Part shown: positions 11,741 through 25,179 of the stretch, piece by piece | Numbering within the stretch: position 1 is the stretch's first letter | How the letters are laid out: the number at the start of each line of letters is the position of its first letter | IMG/VR virus record: IMGVR_UViG_3300047471_000616 | Span: 1-64,000 of that record | DNA from: a virus | Direction: 5' to 3' (one strand) | Length of the DNA stretch: 64,000 nt | Notes under the pieces: generated by a model | What the model saw: the letters and a program-made list of their open reading frames with translations, nothing else | The model's database searches: none | Told to the model about the DNA's origin: nothing | Program-made: the position numbers and the translations under genes

Positions 11741-12223
11741 TCAGGCCGCTGTGAGCAGCCTTTCCTCTATTTCTACCATACAAGAACGGCCCAGCAATTC
11801 AGCCAGGACCTTTACCCGGTCATGCACCGATTGACCCTCATAGCAAAGCAAAAGCCCCGCCAGGGGGCCTTCTTGGCATTTGACTTTGGAACCTTTACGG
11901 AAGCGTGGCGGTGCCACCAGCTGGTACAGCCCGTTTTTGTCTTCCCTGGCTTGTATTGTTTCTATGACCTGATCAGGTAATAGTTGCGGGCCAGAGTCAG
12001 CCATCAGCAGGTAACTGATCCCACGGGTGCCGCACAATGAATGCCACACCTGCTCCAGCTTCACGAAGATGTAACGGGGAAACAAGGGACGGACTACCGC
12101 AGCAACACCGGGTTTCTTGTGCTCGTATTTTGGGTAGTAAAAGGTAAAGCCCTGACGCTGCAGATTGACTGCGGCGATGCCCTCATGGTTGGGCTTTGTC
12201 ATTGCTACGAACCAAGACATCAA
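11741..12223 (-). CDS. NusG/RfaH-family transcription antitermination protein
   Basis: WFVAMTKPNHE...PLFPRYIFV (NGN domain); FRKGSKV...GPLAG (KOW domain). Confidence 0.9.
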   Translation of the reverse strand: MMSWFVAMTKPNHEGIAAVNLQRQGFTFYYPKYEHKKPGVAAVVRPLFPRYIFVKLEQVWHSLCGTRGISYLLMADSGPQLLPDQVIETIQAREDKNGLYQLVAPPRFRKGSKVKCQEGPLAGLLLCYEGQSVHDRVKVLAELLGRSCMVEIEERLLTAA

Positions 12224-13461: not shown

Positions 13462-13673
13462 AACTACCGCTATGGATCAAGAACAAAGAAGGAAAATACG
13501 CAGCGTTCCCCTACGCCGACAGGTTCACCACCTTCAGCGACGGGAAGTGCGGGGTTGAAGCCAAACACGTCAGGTACTCGGACTTGCGGTTATTTTGGCA
13601 ACATGTGTTTATTTACGACATAAGAAATGACCGGTTTCTGCTGAGGGAAACCAGGCGTAAATATAAACGATAA
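13458..13673 (+). CDS. Small protein, MKxPxWxK family copy 5
   Basis: MKLPLWIKNKEGKYAAFP; ATGA coupling. Confidence 0.75.
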   Translation: MKLPLWIKNKEGKYAAFPYADRFTTFSDGKCGVEAKHVRYSDLRLFWQHVFIYDIRNDRFLLRETRRKYKR

Positions 13674-13742
13674 ATTGCTAAATCTTGGTGCGGGTCGCAG
13701 GGGCACCACGCCCGCCGACGGGGAGGGAGGGGTGACCATTTT

Positions 13743-13774
13743 GTCAAATCACAAGTTGTTACACCCCTGTAACA
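13743..13774. repeat. Left arm of an inverted repeat (GTCAAATCACA-N3-TGTTACA-N4-TGTAACA)
   Basis: Reverse-complement match to 14917-14947. Confidence 0.8.
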
Positions 13775-13794
13775 ATACGTTACTTGACAAGGCT

Positions 13795-13824
13795 AGCGTG
13801 TGGCACAGTCAAGTGCCACACGCT
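13795..13824 (-). terminator. Hairpin, likely terminator of the 14684->13876 unit
   Basis: Perfect 12-bp stem AGCGTGTGGCAC/GTGCCACACGCT. Confidence 0.6.
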
Positions 13825-13875
13825 GCAAGCTAACGGGTGAGGCTAGCGTGTACTAACGTTTCATTGCAACCCCCT

Positions 13876-14091
13876 TCAAAAGGTTGCGGGCTTACCGCGC
13901 CGCAACCATTGTTCAAGTTGATAGTGTTCAGCCGCCGTGAGCGGCAGCTGCGGTTCACCGTCAAAGTCAGCGTCAAGTAGCGTGACCTTGGCGGCATTGA
14001 ACTTGCGGGCTTGCCATGCGGCAAGCGGGGCAAGTTGACGGTCACGGCGCGCTAACCTACGCGCCGCAACCCTGTTGTAGTGTGTGCGCAT
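13876..14091 (-). CDS. Hypothetical basic protein
   Basis: TAATG coupling to the upstream gene. Confidence 0.6.
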   Translation of the reverse strand: MRTHYNRVAARRLARRDRQLAPLAAWQARKFNAAKVTLLDADFDGEPQLPLTAAEHYQLEQWLRRGKPATF

Positions 14092-14684
14092 TAGCTATTG
14101 AAATGCGCGGCCAAGTCAGTCAACGCAGTTTCAGTAACCGGCGCGTCAACTGGCGCGTCAGTAACCGGCGCGTCAACTGGCGCGTCAGTAACCGGCGCTT
14201 CAACCGGCGCGGGCTTGGCGTTGCGCTTGCGCGCCACCTTGACCGCACCGGCCTTAACCTTTGGCGCGGCCTTGAAGCCGTGAACAATGAGCAGCCGCTC
14301 AATTTCAGCGGCGCCCTTGCTGGTGAGTTCAGCGCGCTTAACCTTGGCGCCGCGCTCAATTGGGCTGAACAAGCCCGCGTTGACCAGCGCTTTCAGGTGG
14401 TTGTGCGCCGCGCCTTCAGCACCGGCCGCGTTCAGGTATTGTGAAACCTGAACACCATCAGGCCGCAGTGCCATTGCCACGTTCACGGCTTCAATACCAG
14501 GGGTTTTTTTGCAGGTCACCGTTGCCACGGTGATCATTGCCGGGGTTGGCAACGTGCCCACCCGTTCAACGCCCCACCGTTCAAAGTTGGCCACGTATTG
14601 ATTGAACCAACCCAGTTTGGGGTGATCAGCCGCAACCTTGATAGCGGCCAGCGCCTTTTCATGATCAGTTAACTTTTTAGCCAT
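14091..14684 (-). CDS. Hypothetical protein with a possible winged-helix core, Lys/Ala-rich linker and APVTD/APVD repeats
   Basis: GAAAGG SD before MAKKLTD; tandem repeats at 14132-14210. Confidence 0.75.
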   Translation of the reverse strand: MAKKLTDHEKALAAIKVAADHPKLGWFNQYVANFERWGVERVGTLPTPAMITVATVTCKKTPGIEAVNVAMALRPDGVQVSQYLNAAGAEGAAHNHLKALVNAGLFSPIERGAKVKRAELTSKGAAEIERLLIVHGFKAAPKVKAGAVKVARKRNAKPAPVEAPVTDAPVDAPVTDAPVDAPVTETALTDLAAHFNS

Positions 14685-15963: not shown

Positions 15964-16290
15964 TCATTTCTCACTTCCTTCCTGTTTCCTGATTCTCAGG
16001 ATGAACCCATTATCATCCATCAATATATGCTGGCCACACTTCCTGCACCGGTAACTTCCCAAATGTACGTTATCCTGGTAGTTTTCCCCGCCATCTATGC
16101 ACACGAAGTTGATATTAAGTTGGCTAAGTGACGAGATGTTATACCATACTTCGCCAGGTCCCAACCTGAAGGGTCTTATGACTAAAAGACAAGGATGATC
16201 GTTGCCGCAGACTACTACATCCCACATCTTAGCCCTGATTTCTGGTACTACCTTGAATCTTTCCTCTGATTTTACTGGTTTCTGCATCAT
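15964..16290 (-). CDS. Zn-finger-like small protein (paralog of 16291-16536)
   Basis: WDVVVCGNDHPCLLV...CRKC. Confidence 0.7.
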   Translation of the reverse strand: MMQKPVKSEERFKVVPEIRAKMWDVVVCGNDHPCLLVIRPFRLGPGEVWYNISSLSQLNINFVCIDGGENYQDNVHLGSYRCRKCGQHILMDDNGFILRIRKQEGSEK

Positions 16291-16536
16291 CTAAGTTTCC
16301 CGTTTCTGCAGTTTGAAAATCTTCCCTACGGTGAATAGGCATTCCCCGCATTCCGGGCAGTTTGTCGCACTGAGTCTTTGGCCCCGCTCAAGCTTCATCT
16401 TGCCCAGGGTACGGAACGCTTTTTCAGTGATGGGGTCGCCTACCCTGACTTCCTTGAGTACCAGCAGGCACGGATGCTTATTCGGACAGACTACTACATC
16501 CCAGGCTTTGGCTAGCAGCAGTTTTTCATCTTGCAT
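16291..16536 (-). CDS. Zn-finger-like small protein (paralog of 15964-16290)
   Basis: WDVVVCPNKHPCLLV...CPEC. Confidence 0.7.
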   Translation of the reverse strand: MQDEKLLLAKAWDVVVCPNKHPCLLVLKEVRVGDPITEKAFRTLGKMKLERGQRLSATNCPECGECLFTVGKIFKLQKRET

Positions 16537-16800
16537 CTGATTTTACTGGTTTCTACATCATCTAAGTTATCTGAGTTAGGGCTATTGTTATCGTTTATAC
16601 CGTGCTAGGGTACTGGCTATGTGGCACCAGGGCTTAGGCTTTAGTTCTCCACACCTCAGCATGGCGGGGCGCTTCTTTGTGGCCGGTGACCGTGACAGGG
16701 TTGCACAGCCAGTCATGCCAAAGACTATAGGGCAGTTTGAACTGCCGCCACAAGCCGGTACTAAGAACGGCAACACTGCACTTGACGGGGTACACTTCTG

Positions 16801-17139
16801 ATGCGCTCACCCTACGGCAAAAAGGGCAAGGCAATTCTTGCCCCTGATGCGGCCTACGCTTTGCGTGGGCTGCGTTTTGACGCAGGCGTGAAGGCCCGCA
16901 TTGAACCCAGTATGTGGGGTTCGCGGGCCGTAGGTTTGCATGGGCCAAATGCGGCCGTTGCAGGCAAGCGCATCCGCTACCTTGAACCCAAAACCGTAGT
17001 ATATTCTGACGGTACACGCGGGGCAGCGGTGCTGCTCAACATGCATTCCAAGTCAGGCTATATGGGTTTGAAAGTTGAGGGGCAGCGTAAACGAAGGATG
17101 CCCACGGTCACTAAGCGGTATGCGGTAGCAAACAAGTAG
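16801..17139 (+). CDS. Hypothetical basic protein
   Basis: 112-aa ORF with a GGGGT SD-like element. Confidence 0.55.
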   Translation: MRSPYGKKGKAILAPDAAYALRGLRFDAGVKARIEPSMWGSRAVGLHGPNAAVAGKRIRYLEPKTVVYSDGTRGAAVLLNMHSKSGYMGLKVEGQRKRRMPTVTKRYAVANK

Positions 17140-17149
17140 GCACAGAAGA

Positions 17150-17665
17150 CGCAGGGGGTACACCCTGCATTCTGAAGCCGGTGACCCGTGATTAACAATC
17201 CGTGACGCCCGTCACGGTGTGCTGCGCTTACCCGGTGGTATTCTTTTGCTGCCATGCTGGCCGCGCAGCCATCACGCCTGAAACCAGGGTCAATTCCCCA
17301 AGGTTACCAAGCCTTGACCGCTTGTAAGTATAATTCCGTTGCAGTTACAACGGGTAAGCACAATCCCTCAACTGGCAGTGCAACAACAAACTTCTTGCTA
17401 CAAAAAACTACAACAGCAAATCTGTGCAACCTAGCAACGGCCAAACCCGCAAGGGCAATTGCGAGGACTCAAGTGGTTCAATGGTTTCAGGTCAATGTCA
17501 CTTCTTGCCACGTTTGGTACGGCAAGGATTGACCGTGATGGCTACGCTTTGCTGGCAGCAGGCTTCGTTTATAGCCTGTTGGCATTGCGCCCCGGTACTT
17601 AGTGCAGCAAAACGCCGTAGATTAATGGGCAGTGACACGGCAATACCAACTTCTTTTGCATGAAT
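17150..17665 (+). ncRNA. Candidate large structured non-coding RNA
   Basis: Nested long-range helices 17221-28/17601-08, 17247-54/17553-60, 17267-76/17534-43 and 17277-86/17482-91; GCAA tetraloop; G-U pairs. Confidence 0.6.
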
Positions 17666-17671
17666 TTGTTT

Positions 17672-17723
17672 GTGGGGTGGGCAATCTGGCTCACCCCTGT
17701 TAGGCAATTTGCCAACTGGAGGA
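17672..17723 (+). promoter_or_regulatory. Repeated intergenic element (hairpin + GTTWGBCAATTT + SD), copy A
   Basis: GGGGTGGGC/GCTCACCCC stem then GTTAGGCAATTTGCCAACTGGAGG. Confidence 0.65.
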
Positions 17724-17729
17724 CTTCTC

Positions 17730-17909
17730 ATGAAAATGAGCTTTGATGAATGGAAGAAGCGTGTTGACCTTGAGATTCAGGCCAAATGCGGGATGACCGC
17801 TGATGACCTGGATGATTGGCACTACAGCGACGACTGGCGTGACGGCCTGTCGCCCAAGCGGTGCGCTGCGCGTGCCATCAAAAATGCAAAGGAAGCCTGT
17901 GGGCTGTAA
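17730..17909 (+). CDS. Hypothetical protein
   Basis: GGAGG SD; MKMSFDEWKKRVD. Confidence 0.75.
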   Translation: MKMSFDEWKKRVDLEIQAKCGMTADDLDDWHYSDDWRDGLSPKRCAARAIKNAKEACGL

Positions 17910-18275: not shown

Positions 18276-18563
18276 ATGGGTGTGAACATCTTTGCGCCGG
18301 TGAACAGTGAACACGACGCTGACGCCATGGTCGAATTTGCCAATGCCAAGGCCAAAGGCAGGTTCGACTGGTGTGACAAGTTCGAAGGCCCTGGCGGCTG
18401 CTGCTTGAGCATCATAGACGCCTTGGCTTTCAGCGAAAAGGAAGCACCGTGGTGGGTGCTGACCAAGGGGAAAATGGTGAAAACCAAGACCCGCAGGCAG
18501 TGGCAGCGTTTGCTCATCGATAGCGGCTGCCACCACGTCATCTTTTTGAAGGCCAGGCTGTAA
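18276..18563 (+). CDS. Hypothetical protein
   Basis: AAGGAGG SD. Confidence 0.7.
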   Translation: MGVNIFAPVNSEHDADAMVEFANAKAKGRFDWCDKFEGPGGCCLSIIDALAFSEKEAPWWVLTKGKMVKTKTRRQWQRLLIDSGCHHVIFLKARL

Positions 18564-18616
18564 TTCATCTATTGGGGGCGCGAATGCCCCCGTTTGGCAA
18601 TTTGCCACAGGAGGAA
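18561..18616 (+). promoter_or_regulatory. Repeated intergenic element, copy B
   Basis: TAATTCATCTATTG-hairpin-GTTTGGCAATTTGCCACAGGAGG. Confidence 0.7.
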
Positions 18617-18619
18617 GTG

Positions 18620-18817
18620 ATGATTACTCAGATTGACAGGCGTGAGAATAAAGTAGTGCAGAAGGTGACCAAGCCCGACGGCACGGTCATCGCCTATCAG
18701 TCCGGCACCCCCGGTGATGAGGCGACGATGGAACGGTTCACAACACTGGTTGAGGCGCGGGCCGCCGTTGGCATCTACGCCAAGGGCGTGCTGGCCAATG
18801 GAGGGGCGAATGGTTGA
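18620..18817 (+). CDS. Hypothetical protein
   Basis: AGGAGG SD. Confidence 0.7.
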   Translation: MITQIDRRENKVVQKVTKPDGTVIAYQSGTPGDEATMERFTTLVEARAAVGIYAKGVLANGGANG

Positions 18818-19467: not shown

Positions 19468-19756
19468 AGGCAAGTTCGGCCCGCGTGCAGCAACCAAGCA
19501 GGAGACGAAAATGGACAGCACCGAAAAGATGATGAAGGACCTGGGCCTGGACAACCTGGTGGTTGTCGGCAGGGGTGAACGCGGCACGGTCGTCGCCTAC
19601 TACAACACCTATGAAGGCCAGGACTACTTCCACATTCGCAATGTGTACAGCAAGCGCGGCACCTGGATGCACGGCAAGGGGTTGTCGGTCAGCCCCAGCA
19701 TGGCCAAGGAACTGCTGGCTAACCTTGGCGAACTGGGTGGCAAGCTGGAATCATAA
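19454..19756 (+). CDS. PC4/YdbC-like ssDNA-binding protein
   Basis: YEGQDYFHIRNVY...GTWMHGKGLSV matches the PC4 fold pattern. Confidence 0.65.
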   Translation: MVVIKGKFGPRAATKQETKMDSTEKMMKDLGLDNLVVVGRGERGTVVAYYNTYEGQDYFHIRNVYSKRGTWMHGKGLSVSPSMAKELLANLGELGGKLES

Positions 19757-19810
19757 TTCATCTATTGCGGGTGGTGCGATCACCCGCGTTTGTCAATTTT
19801 GAGAGGGGAC
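19754..19810 (+). promoter_or_regulatory. Repeated intergenic element, copy C
   Basis: TAATTCATCTATTG-hairpin(GCGGGTG/CACCCGC)-GTTTGTCAATTTT-GAGAGGGG. Confidence 0.7.
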
Positions 19811-19814
19811 TAAC

Positions 19815-20369
19815 ATGACTGAACCTAATCTGGTGCCATACATAGGCCGCCTCAGCCAAAAGGAAAAGGCGGTGCTGCTGCGGTGGATCAGGCAAATACC
19901 GGGCGAAGAACACCACTTTGAGGGCACGTTGCCGTTTGTGTCGGTGAGCAAAGTCTTGGGTGTTCTTGAAATGGTGAAAACGAGTGTATACCCAGCAGCG
20001 GGAGGGCACCCAGCCTCGCAACGTATTGCCAAGGAAATATTGGTGAAGCTGAGCGAAGCGCTTGATGATCGCAAAGGCCAAGCCAGCTTCTTAATGCGCC
20101 TCAACGACAAAAAGGTGTATAGGCACTTCGGCAGGCAGCCTGAGAAGGGCAAGCCGCTGAACTTCTTGCCCAAAGAAAAGGTGACGGTGGGTGTGAAGTA
20201 TCATCTGCCGTCAAAGGACTACATACCTGACAAGGACGTGCTGGTAGCACCCTGTGTCAAGCTCAAGCCGATGGAAAAGGGACGTATTCTTGCCCGGTCG
20301 TGGCAGGTCACCGTGCTCAACCGCTGCCGCCCGGCCGTCGAGCTGTGGTTGCAGCAGAATTGTCAGTAA
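19815..20369 (+). CDS. Hypothetical protein
   Basis: 184-aa ORF with SD. Confidence 0.7.
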   Translation: MTEPNLVPYIGRLSQKEKAVLLRWIRQIPGEEHHFEGTLPFVSVSKVLGVLEMVKTSVYPAAGGHPASQRIAKEILVKLSEALDDRKGQASFLMRLNDKKVYRHFGRQPEKGKPLNFLPKEKVTVGVKYHLPSKDYIPDKDVLVAPCVKLKPMEKGRILARSWQVTVLNRCRPAVELWLQQNCQ

Positions 20370-23312: not shown

Positions 23313-23727
23313 GCGCCGCATCGTCATTGTGGGCGGACCGCGTTGTGGGAAGTCCACAATGGCGCGGCGGCTGCGTGAACAAGGTATCCCCACGTATTGT
23401 GGGGATACCGTTAGCTTCGTGAAGCAGCCTGAAGAAGGCGTCATCTACCTGCCTGAATACCTTAGCTGGACTACTGCACCAGATTATGTGGCCAGGGAAT
23501 GGCTGACGATGCCAGCTCCTTGGTGCTGTGAAGGTGTGGTGATGGCACGGGCGCTTCGCAAGTTGATGCGACAGAACCAGGGCCACCTGCTAAAAGGGAC
23601 TGAAGTTATCTACCTTTCAGTGCCAATGGAGCCACGCACTCCGGGCCAGGGCAACATGGCCAAAGGTATTTCCACGGTGTGGTTTGAAATAGAATCTTTC
23701 GTTAGGCAATTTGCCACAGTGAAATAG
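23305..23727 (+). CDS. Small P-loop NTPase / kinase-like protein
   Basis: IVIVGGPRCGKST Walker A at the N-terminus. Confidence 0.7.
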   Translation: MNKRRIVIVGGPRCGKSTMARRLREQGIPTYCGDTVSFVKQPEEGVIYLPEYLSWTTAPDYVAREWLTMPAPWCCEGVVMARALRKLMRQNQGHLLKGTEVIYLSVPMEPRTPGQGNMAKGISTVWFEIESFVRQFATVK

Positions 23728-24814: not shown

Positions 24815-24867
24815 TATTGGGGGGCGGGTGCGACGCCCCCCGTTAGCCAATTTAGCCACAGGAGGAT
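24815..24867 (+). promoter_or_regulatory. Repeated intergenic element, copy D
   Basis: TATTG-GGGGGCG/CGCCCCCC-GTTAGCCAATTTAGCCACAGGAGG. Confidence 0.7.
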
Positions 24868-24870
24868 ACT

Positions 24871-25179
24871 ATGACTGAAGAAACCGATCAAACCAACTTT
24901 TTCAATTCTATCAGCTTTATCGACGGCTTGTTGAATGAGATAGCTGACCGTGTGCTCAAGAAACTAACGGACAGCAACAGCAACATGCTCAACACGATTC
25001 AGTACAAAGTCAGGGCTGAGAACATTGAGGGCCAGATTAAGGCCACCCAGATTGATGGCCTGGACGACATGGTTGAAGATGCAGTCAGCAGCGCCGTGAG
25101 GGATATGGCCACTGAGGCCGGTGCCGACGCTGCTGAGAAGTATGTCAGGGGCCTTGAATTCGAAGTCAACGTGCGCTGA
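24871..25179 (+). CDS. Hypothetical protein
   Basis: AGGAGG SD. Confidence 0.7.
   Translation: MTEETDQTNFFNSISFIDGLLNEIADRVLKKLTDSNSNMLNTIQYKVRAENIEGQIKATQIDGLDDMVEDAVSSAVRDMATEAGADAAEKYVRGLEFEVNVR

Follow-up and report, generated by a model that had tools for sequence, protein, structure and literature searches.

Organization of the locus

The analysed DNA (the window) covers positions 1 to 64,000 of the 96,020-bp IMG/VR virus record IMGVR_UViG_3300047471_000616. An exact 127-bp repeat is present at both ends of this phage record, forming direct terminal repeats. The gene direction switches inside the window, with leftward genes up to about 16.5 kb and rightward genes from about 16.8 kb. 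The rightward arm, which is probably the early arm, starts with small genes without assigned function and continues with a replication module encoding helicases, a primase, DNA polymerase A, a clamp and clamp loader, a gp32-like protein, a UvsX-like recombinase and an SbcC-like nuclease. Because the nearest DNA polymerase among cultured phages shares 33% identity, and blastn searches against 50,697 phage records with the element described below and with its surrounding 7.9 kb gave no match, the phage appears to have no close cultured relative.

The features at the head of the rightward arm are listed in Table 1. They were compared with two related loci. IMGVR_UViG_3300047090_000187 (L002/L007) is the sole full-length relative in IMG/VR, and Ga0210402_10161419 (L005) is a 2-kb metagenome contig that ends at window position 17491. 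The IMG/VR scans for further homologues of the element returned IMGVR_UViG_3300047090_000187 alone, and the scans of genome contigs returned none.

Table 1. Features at the head of the rightward arm (window positions; L002 and L005 are the related loci)
Feature	Positions	Strand	Details
ORF112	16801..17139	+	very basic 112-aa protein; first gene of the plus-strand arm
Hairpin directly after the ORF112 stop codon	17143..17174	+	core GCAGGG/CCCTGC 17151-68, outer CAGAA/TTCTG
Linker	17175..17199	+	conserved, mostly unpaired; carries GCCGGTGACCCGTGA and TTAACAA
Folded domain	17200..17640	+	rod of long-range helices P1-P3, side hairpins, multi-way junction, apical extension
P1 5' strand	17207..17232	+	partner 17594-17630: GCCC/GGGC, ACGGTGT/ACGCCGT, GCTGCGCT/AGTGCAGC, TACC/GGTA
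P2 and P3 5' strands	17255..17286	+	partners 17534-17557 and 17482-17491; pairing probabilities 0.90-0.98
Two small hairpins, GGG/CCC and CAAGGTT/AGCCTTG	17287..17316	+	three compensatory pairs in L005
P5 5' strand ACCGCTTG, unpaired TAAGTATAATT (17325-35), P6 5' strand CCGTTGC	17317..17343	+	partners 17470-77, 17434-40
Variable apical domain with A-rich terminal loop	17356..17425	+	70 nt here; about 28 unrelated nt in L002 and L005
GNRA hairpin ACCC-GCAA-GGG, invariant, on covarying lower stem	17443..17465	+	
Side arm GTCA.TTCTTGCC, loop, GGCAAGGA.TGAC	17497..17533	+	pairing probability 0.99 in both phages (window, L002)
3'-side hairpin GCAGGCT/AGCCTGT	17558..17579	+	pairing probability 0.96-0.99; loop shortened and changed in L002
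First cassette copy	17674..17723	+	G+C hairpin 17674-97, palindrome GGCAATTTGCC, Shine-Dalgarno GGAGGA 17718-23
Downstream gene	17730..17909	+	59-aa DUF5419 / phrog_519 protein; Pfam E 3.2e-9, PHROG E 6.6e-10

ORF112 has 13 homologues with 61-100% identity, and its family counts 8 representatives in 1.84 billion proteins. Compared with the L005 copy (82% protein identity), the numbers of substitutions are 16, 11 and 39 at codon positions 1, 2 and 3, so that 39 of the 112 third positions differ. Searches against Pfam, PHROG, PDB (profile search) and the ESM Atlas gave no match, nor did tblastn against the 50,697 phage records. ORF112 is a real, conserved gene and founds a new family of basic proteins that is very small. 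The pLDDT values obtained in two AlphaFold runs were 48-49. The conserved motifs of the protein are MRSP(Q)YG at the N-terminus, GLHGPNA...KRIRYLEPKTVVY.DG.RGA in the core and PTVTKRYAVAKK at the C-terminus. The gene does not carry a strong ACAGGAGGAA-type ribosome-binding site of the kind present on other genes of the rightward arm. In every locus obtained, ORF112 and the element were found together.

The 3' two-thirds of ORF112 (16930-17139) shares 85-97% nucleotide identity with L005, synonymous sites included, and the 5' third just 57-72%. The stretch 16801-17175 also folds stably (z -4.4 in the window, z -2.0 in L005). In view of the high 3' identity and this fold, constraint at the nucleotide level may start within ORF112. 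The hairpin that follows the stop codon has a core pairing probability of 0.99 and no U-run, and its outer extension is kept in L005 through a shifted AGAAG/CTTCT pairing. The linker behind it is nearly invariant in all three sequences, with a single A/G difference at 17191 in L002. Its motif GCCGGTGACCCGTGA (17177-17191, before the folded domain) is a near-copy of GCCGGTGACCGTGA in the ORF112 leader (16682-16695). Both are conserved in L005, and no further exact copy of the motif occurs in the window. In addition, GGGGTACAC...TTCTGA is present twice, at 16788 and 17155.

On its 3' side the element is followed by a gene-junction cassette, and the stretch 17674-17723 is identical in L002. More copies of the cassette occur at 18561-18625, 19754-19815 and 24815-24875 (all plus strand), directly after the stop codons of protein genes, and partial copies lie near 23701 and 28723. 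The common layout is (TAATTCATC)TATTG, a G+C hairpin with varying stem sequence, the palindrome GTT(T/A)GGCAATTTGCCA and then a Shine-Dalgarno sequence. The cassette hairpins contain no U-runs and none was flagged as a terminator; the cassette could be a processing or attenuation site combined with an operator. Since the cassette after the element is the same one that trails protein genes, the element takes the position of a gene, filling a gene-like slot between the hairpin 17151-68 and the cassette.

The element folds into a large branched structure

The initial annotation had proposed a structured non-coding RNA of about 500 nt at 17150-17665. The minimum free energy (MFE) of this stretch on the plus strand is -199.4 kcal/mol, compared with -163.1 ± 6.2 kcal/mol for dinucleotide shuffles (z -5.86), and none of 100 shuffles folded as well. 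The core 17200-17640 reached z -6.10 against dinucleotide shuffles, with an MFE of -179.7. The folding energy is therefore far better than that of shuffled sequences. The folded domain itself covers 17200-17640, and 17151-68 is a separate hairpin. In a genome-wide fold scan with 500-nt windows, 16751-17250 was the most stable one for its GC content (z -3.2), and 17251-17750 was among the top ten (z -2.2). The whole region of 16.5-17.75 kb is thus unusually structured. In the same scan, the 500-nt windows at 13501-14500 were also among the most stable for GC content (z -2.3 to -2.9); they coincide with a trinucleotide-avoidance island.

All the helices named in the initial annotation could be read directly in the sequence. 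These are GCTGCGCT 17221-28 with AGTGCAGC 17601-08, TGCTGCCA 17247-54 with TGGCAGCA 17553-60, AGCCATCACG 17267-76 with CGTGATGGCT 17534-43, CCTGAAACCA 17277-86 with TGGTTTCAGG 17482-91, and CCGCTTG 17318-24 with CAAGTGG 17470-76. The CCC-GCAA-GGG hairpin at 17446-55 and the A/C-rich loop at 17400-14 are present as well. The second of these helices has a competitor, TGCTGGC 17255-61 with GCTGGCA 17551-57, which is preferred in the MFE structure. The proposed side-arm register GTCAAT/ATTGAC found no support: the relative reads GTCAAC, and the stable register pairs GTCA 17497-500 with TGAC 17530-33 and continues into TTCTTGCC/GGCAAGGA. This register leaves a 5-nt linker, so the three-way junction is not flush as had been suggested.

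In the partition function, probabilities of 0.9-1.0 were obtained for GCTGCGCT/AGTGCAGC, TGCTGGC/GCTGGCA, AGCCATCACG/CGTGATGGCT, CCTGAAACCA/TGGTTTCAGG, ACCGCTTG/CAAGTGGT, the side arm and the 17558-79 hairpin. P1 as a whole includes three G-U pairs, and its pairing probabilities range from 0.58 to 1.0. The L002 version has the same architecture (z -4.94), and most helices common to the window and L002 have pairing probabilities that reach about 0.85 or higher in each of them.

Two perfect local hairpins, CCGTGAC-GCCC-GTCACGG at 17200-17217 and CCGTTG-CAGTTA-CAACGG at 17337-17354, each exclude one long-range helix of the large fold; in the second, the P6 strand CCGTTGC pairs with CAACGG 17349-54 in an alternative local hairpin. 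Both would form first during transcription, which could make the folding switch-like. Kissing loops formed by GUAC in two loops were considered and rejected, as they are not conserved in L002.

Base pairing is conserved among the related loci

In 40-nt bins outside the replaced centre, L005 is mostly 75-95% identical to the element. The element thus evolves at a lower rate than third codon positions in the neighbouring ORF112. RNAalifold on the stretch common to the three sequences gave 41 pairs, of which 7 had compensatory changes. In an independent count over the 41 consensus pairs, 98.4% of the cells were paired, and the covariation was reached by none of 500 shuffles. Slid controls gave 0-1 compensatory pairs. 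The five most secure compensatory changes are confined to three small hairpins. In L005, the GGG/CCC hairpin changes a G-C pair to U-A, and the CAAGGTT/AGCCTTG hairpin has G-C in place of A-U and G-U in place of U-G. In its lower stem, the GCAA hairpin reads CAA/TTG, CAG/CTG and CGG/CCG across the three sequences, which amounts to two compensatory pairs. None of the P6 pairs differs among the three sequences, and P5 varies at a single pair (G-U to G-C).

This covariation covers the local and mid-range helices, and both strands of P1-P3 are spanned by one relative, L002. Both strands of P2 and P3 are nearly invariant between the window and L002. P1-P3 are supported by energy, by conservation and by one block replacement that preserves pairing, and not by classical covariation, because they are almost unchanged in the sole relative covering both strands. 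In the block replacement, the L002 segment at 17589-99 (the P1 3' side, partner of TACC...) has a different sequence and forms 9 bp, including 3 G-U pairs, with the unchanged ACCCGGTGG.

The diverged 3' half (17426-17667) was compared between the window and L002. Only 3 of 110 firmly paired bases differ, compared with 29 of 132 other bases (Fisher p 5e-6). Two of the three differing paired bases belong to a window-specific alternative to a covarying consensus stem, the third turns C-G into U-G, and none of the three breaks a consensus helix. Where blocks are replaced, they either lie in loops or still pair with a partner that has not changed. The apical 70 nt (17356-17425) are replaced in both relatives, with the closing stem and the A-rich loop persisting in all three sequences. 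In L002 the loop of the side arm is wholly replaced, and the loop at 17569-73 is replaced as well.

When the window was aligned to L007, 4 differences were found over 15979-17178, and both sides of this block are 3-17% diverged. The mosaic suggests that recombination took place recently and left a junction where the element begins on its 5' side.

The closeness of the relatives raises the explanation that the element has no selected function and is a palindrome that arose by chance or is decaying, such as a MITE-like insertion, still kept because so little divergence separates the loci. All relatives obtained are indeed close, and the near identity of the 5' half between the window and L002 follows from the shared block at 15979-17178. 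However, L005, in which ORF112 is 20% diverged, still keeps the element together with compensatory pairs, and the differences between the window and L002 are distributed asymmetrically between stems and loops, with the p value given above. The element is also single-copy in the 96-kb genome, and flanking direct repeats were not found. We therefore consider the absence of a selected function very improbable.

The element is non-coding and is probably a plus-strand RNA

Open reading frames of 79-92 aa are present in the element of the window, and the longest of them (92 aa, 17254-17532) is called as a gene on 29 contigs, which all carry the identical sequence. The initial annotation had asked whether homologues conserve this frame rather than the base pairs. 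In both relatives the ATG at 17254 is changed to ACG and indels of 1-2 nt break the frame, and the base pairs are kept. A search of 5.8 billion proteins with the 92-aa ORF found the identical sequence alone, the 79-aa ORF (17424-17663) had no homologue, and no ORF of the element matched Pfam or PHROG. The element is thus non-coding. A protein- or small-peptide-coding role, such as that of the 92-aa ORF, is hardly credible, and even if this role and the absence of any function are taken together, they remain highly improbable.

The plus strand had been proposed from the G-U pairs and the GNRA loop. One G-U pair is kept in all three sequences and one U-G pair is swapped to G-U, and these conserved pairs favour the plus strand because they would be A-C mismatches on the other strand. 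The plus-strand fold contains 14 G-U pairs, compared with one A-C 1x1 mismatch. The MFE on the plus and minus strands is -179.7 versus -173.6 in the window (z -6.1 versus -4.15) and -168.4 versus -155.6 in L002. Both flanking genes are on the plus strand. The argument from G-U pairs is thus real but of moderate weight, as the minus strand of the window folds almost as well, and a plus-strand transcript is moderately favoured.

No match was found in the whole window with the Rfam 15 covariance models at gathering thresholds, among them the models for ROOL, GOLLD, OLE, raiA, 6S, RNase P, tmRNA, group I/II introns and small ribozymes. When hits with E up to 10 were allowed in 16900-17900, four chance-level hits were obtained (snoR126, GP_knot1, ASpks and SNORA5), all far below threshold. 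ARAGORN found no tRNA or tmRNA gene in the 64-kb window. The element belongs to no described RNA family, which agrees with the initial annotation, where it was not recognised as a tmRNA, RNase P, 6S RNA or intron.

A signal at the DNA level was considered as well. At the boundary of the divergent arms it could be a replication origin with single-strand hairpins or with transcript priming of the ColE1 RNA II or T4 oriF kind, a T5-like injection-stop signal or a recombination signal. The element lies just right of this boundary, near the cumulative GC-skew minimum at about 16-17 kb, and it folds well with DNA parameters (z -4.95 on the plus strand) and on the minus strand (z -4.15 to -4.4). However, the change in gene orientation accounts for the skew minimum just as well, iterons or repeat families were not found, and sites resembling DnaA boxes occur at chance level without a cluster. 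The GC content of the element is 45-63%, and the AT-rich stretch of the region (16500-16600) lies outside it. Moreover, the compensatory changes and the conservation of G-U pairs point to a folded single strand of defined polarity. A DNA-level role is therefore improbable.

We estimate a probability of about 0.8 that 17200-17640 is a conserved non-coding structured element of about 440 nt, which folds as a single strand and is most probably a plus-strand RNA of the rightward operon.

Possible modes of action of the RNA

For the mode of action, the best explanation overall is a structured RNA with a trans-acting mechanism, to which we give slightly less than an even chance. The element would be transcribed with ORF112 and the following genes. 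We propose tentatively that the transcribed element then remains as a stable, folded molecule and works in trans by binding proteins, either as a scaffold or as a decoy. For binding it would offer the invariant GCAA hairpin, unpaired bases conserved at the junctions (TAAGTATAATT among them) and the A-rich apical loop. ORF112, which is co-conserved, very basic and apparently disordered, would be the first candidate partner of the RNA; just three points suggest this link, namely charge, low model confidence and adjacency. The more specific proposal, in which the element and ORF112 constitute a new phage ribonucleoprotein that is produced at the head of the rightward operon and whose RNA would affect a host target in trans during takeover or counter-defence, is doubtful at present. 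Antisense action was also examined: elsewhere in the genome, 11-mers that could pair with the element do not clearly exceed the chance expectation, and no ribosome-binding site carries one.

The trans-acting reading has to assume that the RNA is independent or processed, since neither a sigma-70-like promoter nor a canonical intrinsic terminator bounding the element was found. A candidate sigma-70 promoter inside it, TTACCA-19-TATAAT at 17304, was rejected because its -35 positions covary as a hairpin stem in L005.

The element lies within an operon on the plus strand, and neither a promoter nor a terminator belonging to it was identified. This location would also suit a cis-acting operon element, that is, a structured leader or intercistronic segment that sets processing, stability or read-through. 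It could work as a cleavage site for a double-strand-specific RNase, or by modifying the polymerase to read through the cassettes in the manner of put or nut sites. The element is mostly a long interrupted duplex, it is located at the head of the arm and is followed directly by the first of at least four hairpin cassettes, the linker motif with its near-copy in the ORF112 leader marks its 5' edge, and the local hairpins at 17200-17 and 17337-54 could make folding dependent on transcription. The size and complexity of the element, however, do not fit well. Known cis elements of the leader, processing and antitermination kinds measure 15-120 nt, and the element, with about 440 nt, combines at least ten helices with multi-way junctions and with unpaired bases that are conserved. 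The cassette hairpins, without U-runs and unflagged as terminators, also speak against read-through. When a nut-like arrangement was looked for, TTAACAA at 17192 was found followed by the hairpin 17200-17, but boxA lacks its 5' half, and the 7-mer is no rarer in the genome than expected by chance. A cis-acting role is possible, and we regard it as almost as probable as a sponge, scaffold or anti-defence RNA of the kind suggested in the initial annotation. The trans-acting reading is favoured because the size and complexity of the element are far above those of known cis elements and because the element occupies the position of a gene.

Comparison with known RNA elements

Large structured RNAs without known function are rare to our knowledge, and we know of few from phages (ROOL and GOLLD). 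HK022 put and lambda nut sites have 15-70 nt. Like them, the element lies near the head of a probably early operon and upstream of terminator-like hairpins, and its small GNRA-type hairpin together with the basic, apparently disordered product of the first gene recalls lambda boxB and N protein. In contrast to put and nut sites, its boxA-like match is a 7-mer at chance frequency, and the cassettes are no more than terminator-like. An RNase III processing site of the T7 and lambda early transcripts consists of one hairpin with about 50-60 nt. The element shares with these sites an imperfect duplex, an intercistronic position in an early phage operon and the mRNA strand, but it is branched, measures about 440 nt and contains unpaired bases that are conserved. 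6S RNA, of about 180 nt with a defined central bubble, resembles the element in being non-coding and rod-like and in having internal loops; none of the 6S models gave a score at E up to 10. ColE1 RNA II and T4 oriF resemble the element in that a structured RNA of about 500 nt is encoded next to a possible origin region, but no origin features or antisense partner were found for it.

ROOL and GOLLD are large "ornate" phage and prophage RNAs that are Rfam families, usually lie near tRNA islands and build RNA-only assemblies (PMC12286853). The likeness to the element is considerable: a phage-encoded non-coding RNA of hundreds of nt with many helices, GNRA-type loops and variable extensions, for which neither function nor protein partner is known. 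In contrast to them, the element sits inside an operon of protein genes, with no tRNA in the 64-kb window and no Rfam match. It is also more rod-like, and no pseudoknots or oligomerisation contacts were found in it. The element is thus probably a new family of large phage RNA elements unrelated to ROOL and GOLLD.

The element is the second module of the rightward operon, beside a conserved basic protein, in a phage lineage without a cultured relative. It offers a compact candidate for structure probing and for the roles of large RNAs in infection. As the trans-acting RNA of a ribonucleoprotein, it would establish a class of large functional phage RNAs that is new and has no relation to ROOL or GOLLD. 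A cis-acting role would instead make it, by a wide margin, the largest element of the leader or processing type described in a phage operon.

Observations in the leftward arm

The first genes of the leftward arm, at 15964-16290 and 16291-16536 (both minus strand), encode neighbouring paralogous small proteins. Both have the common sequence (K/M)(A/M)WDVVVC.N.HPCLLV and a C-terminal CxxC zinc-ribbon-like motif. Farther along the same arm, a phage NusG paralogue is encoded at 11741-12223 (minus strand; Pfam NusG, E 1.6e-13).
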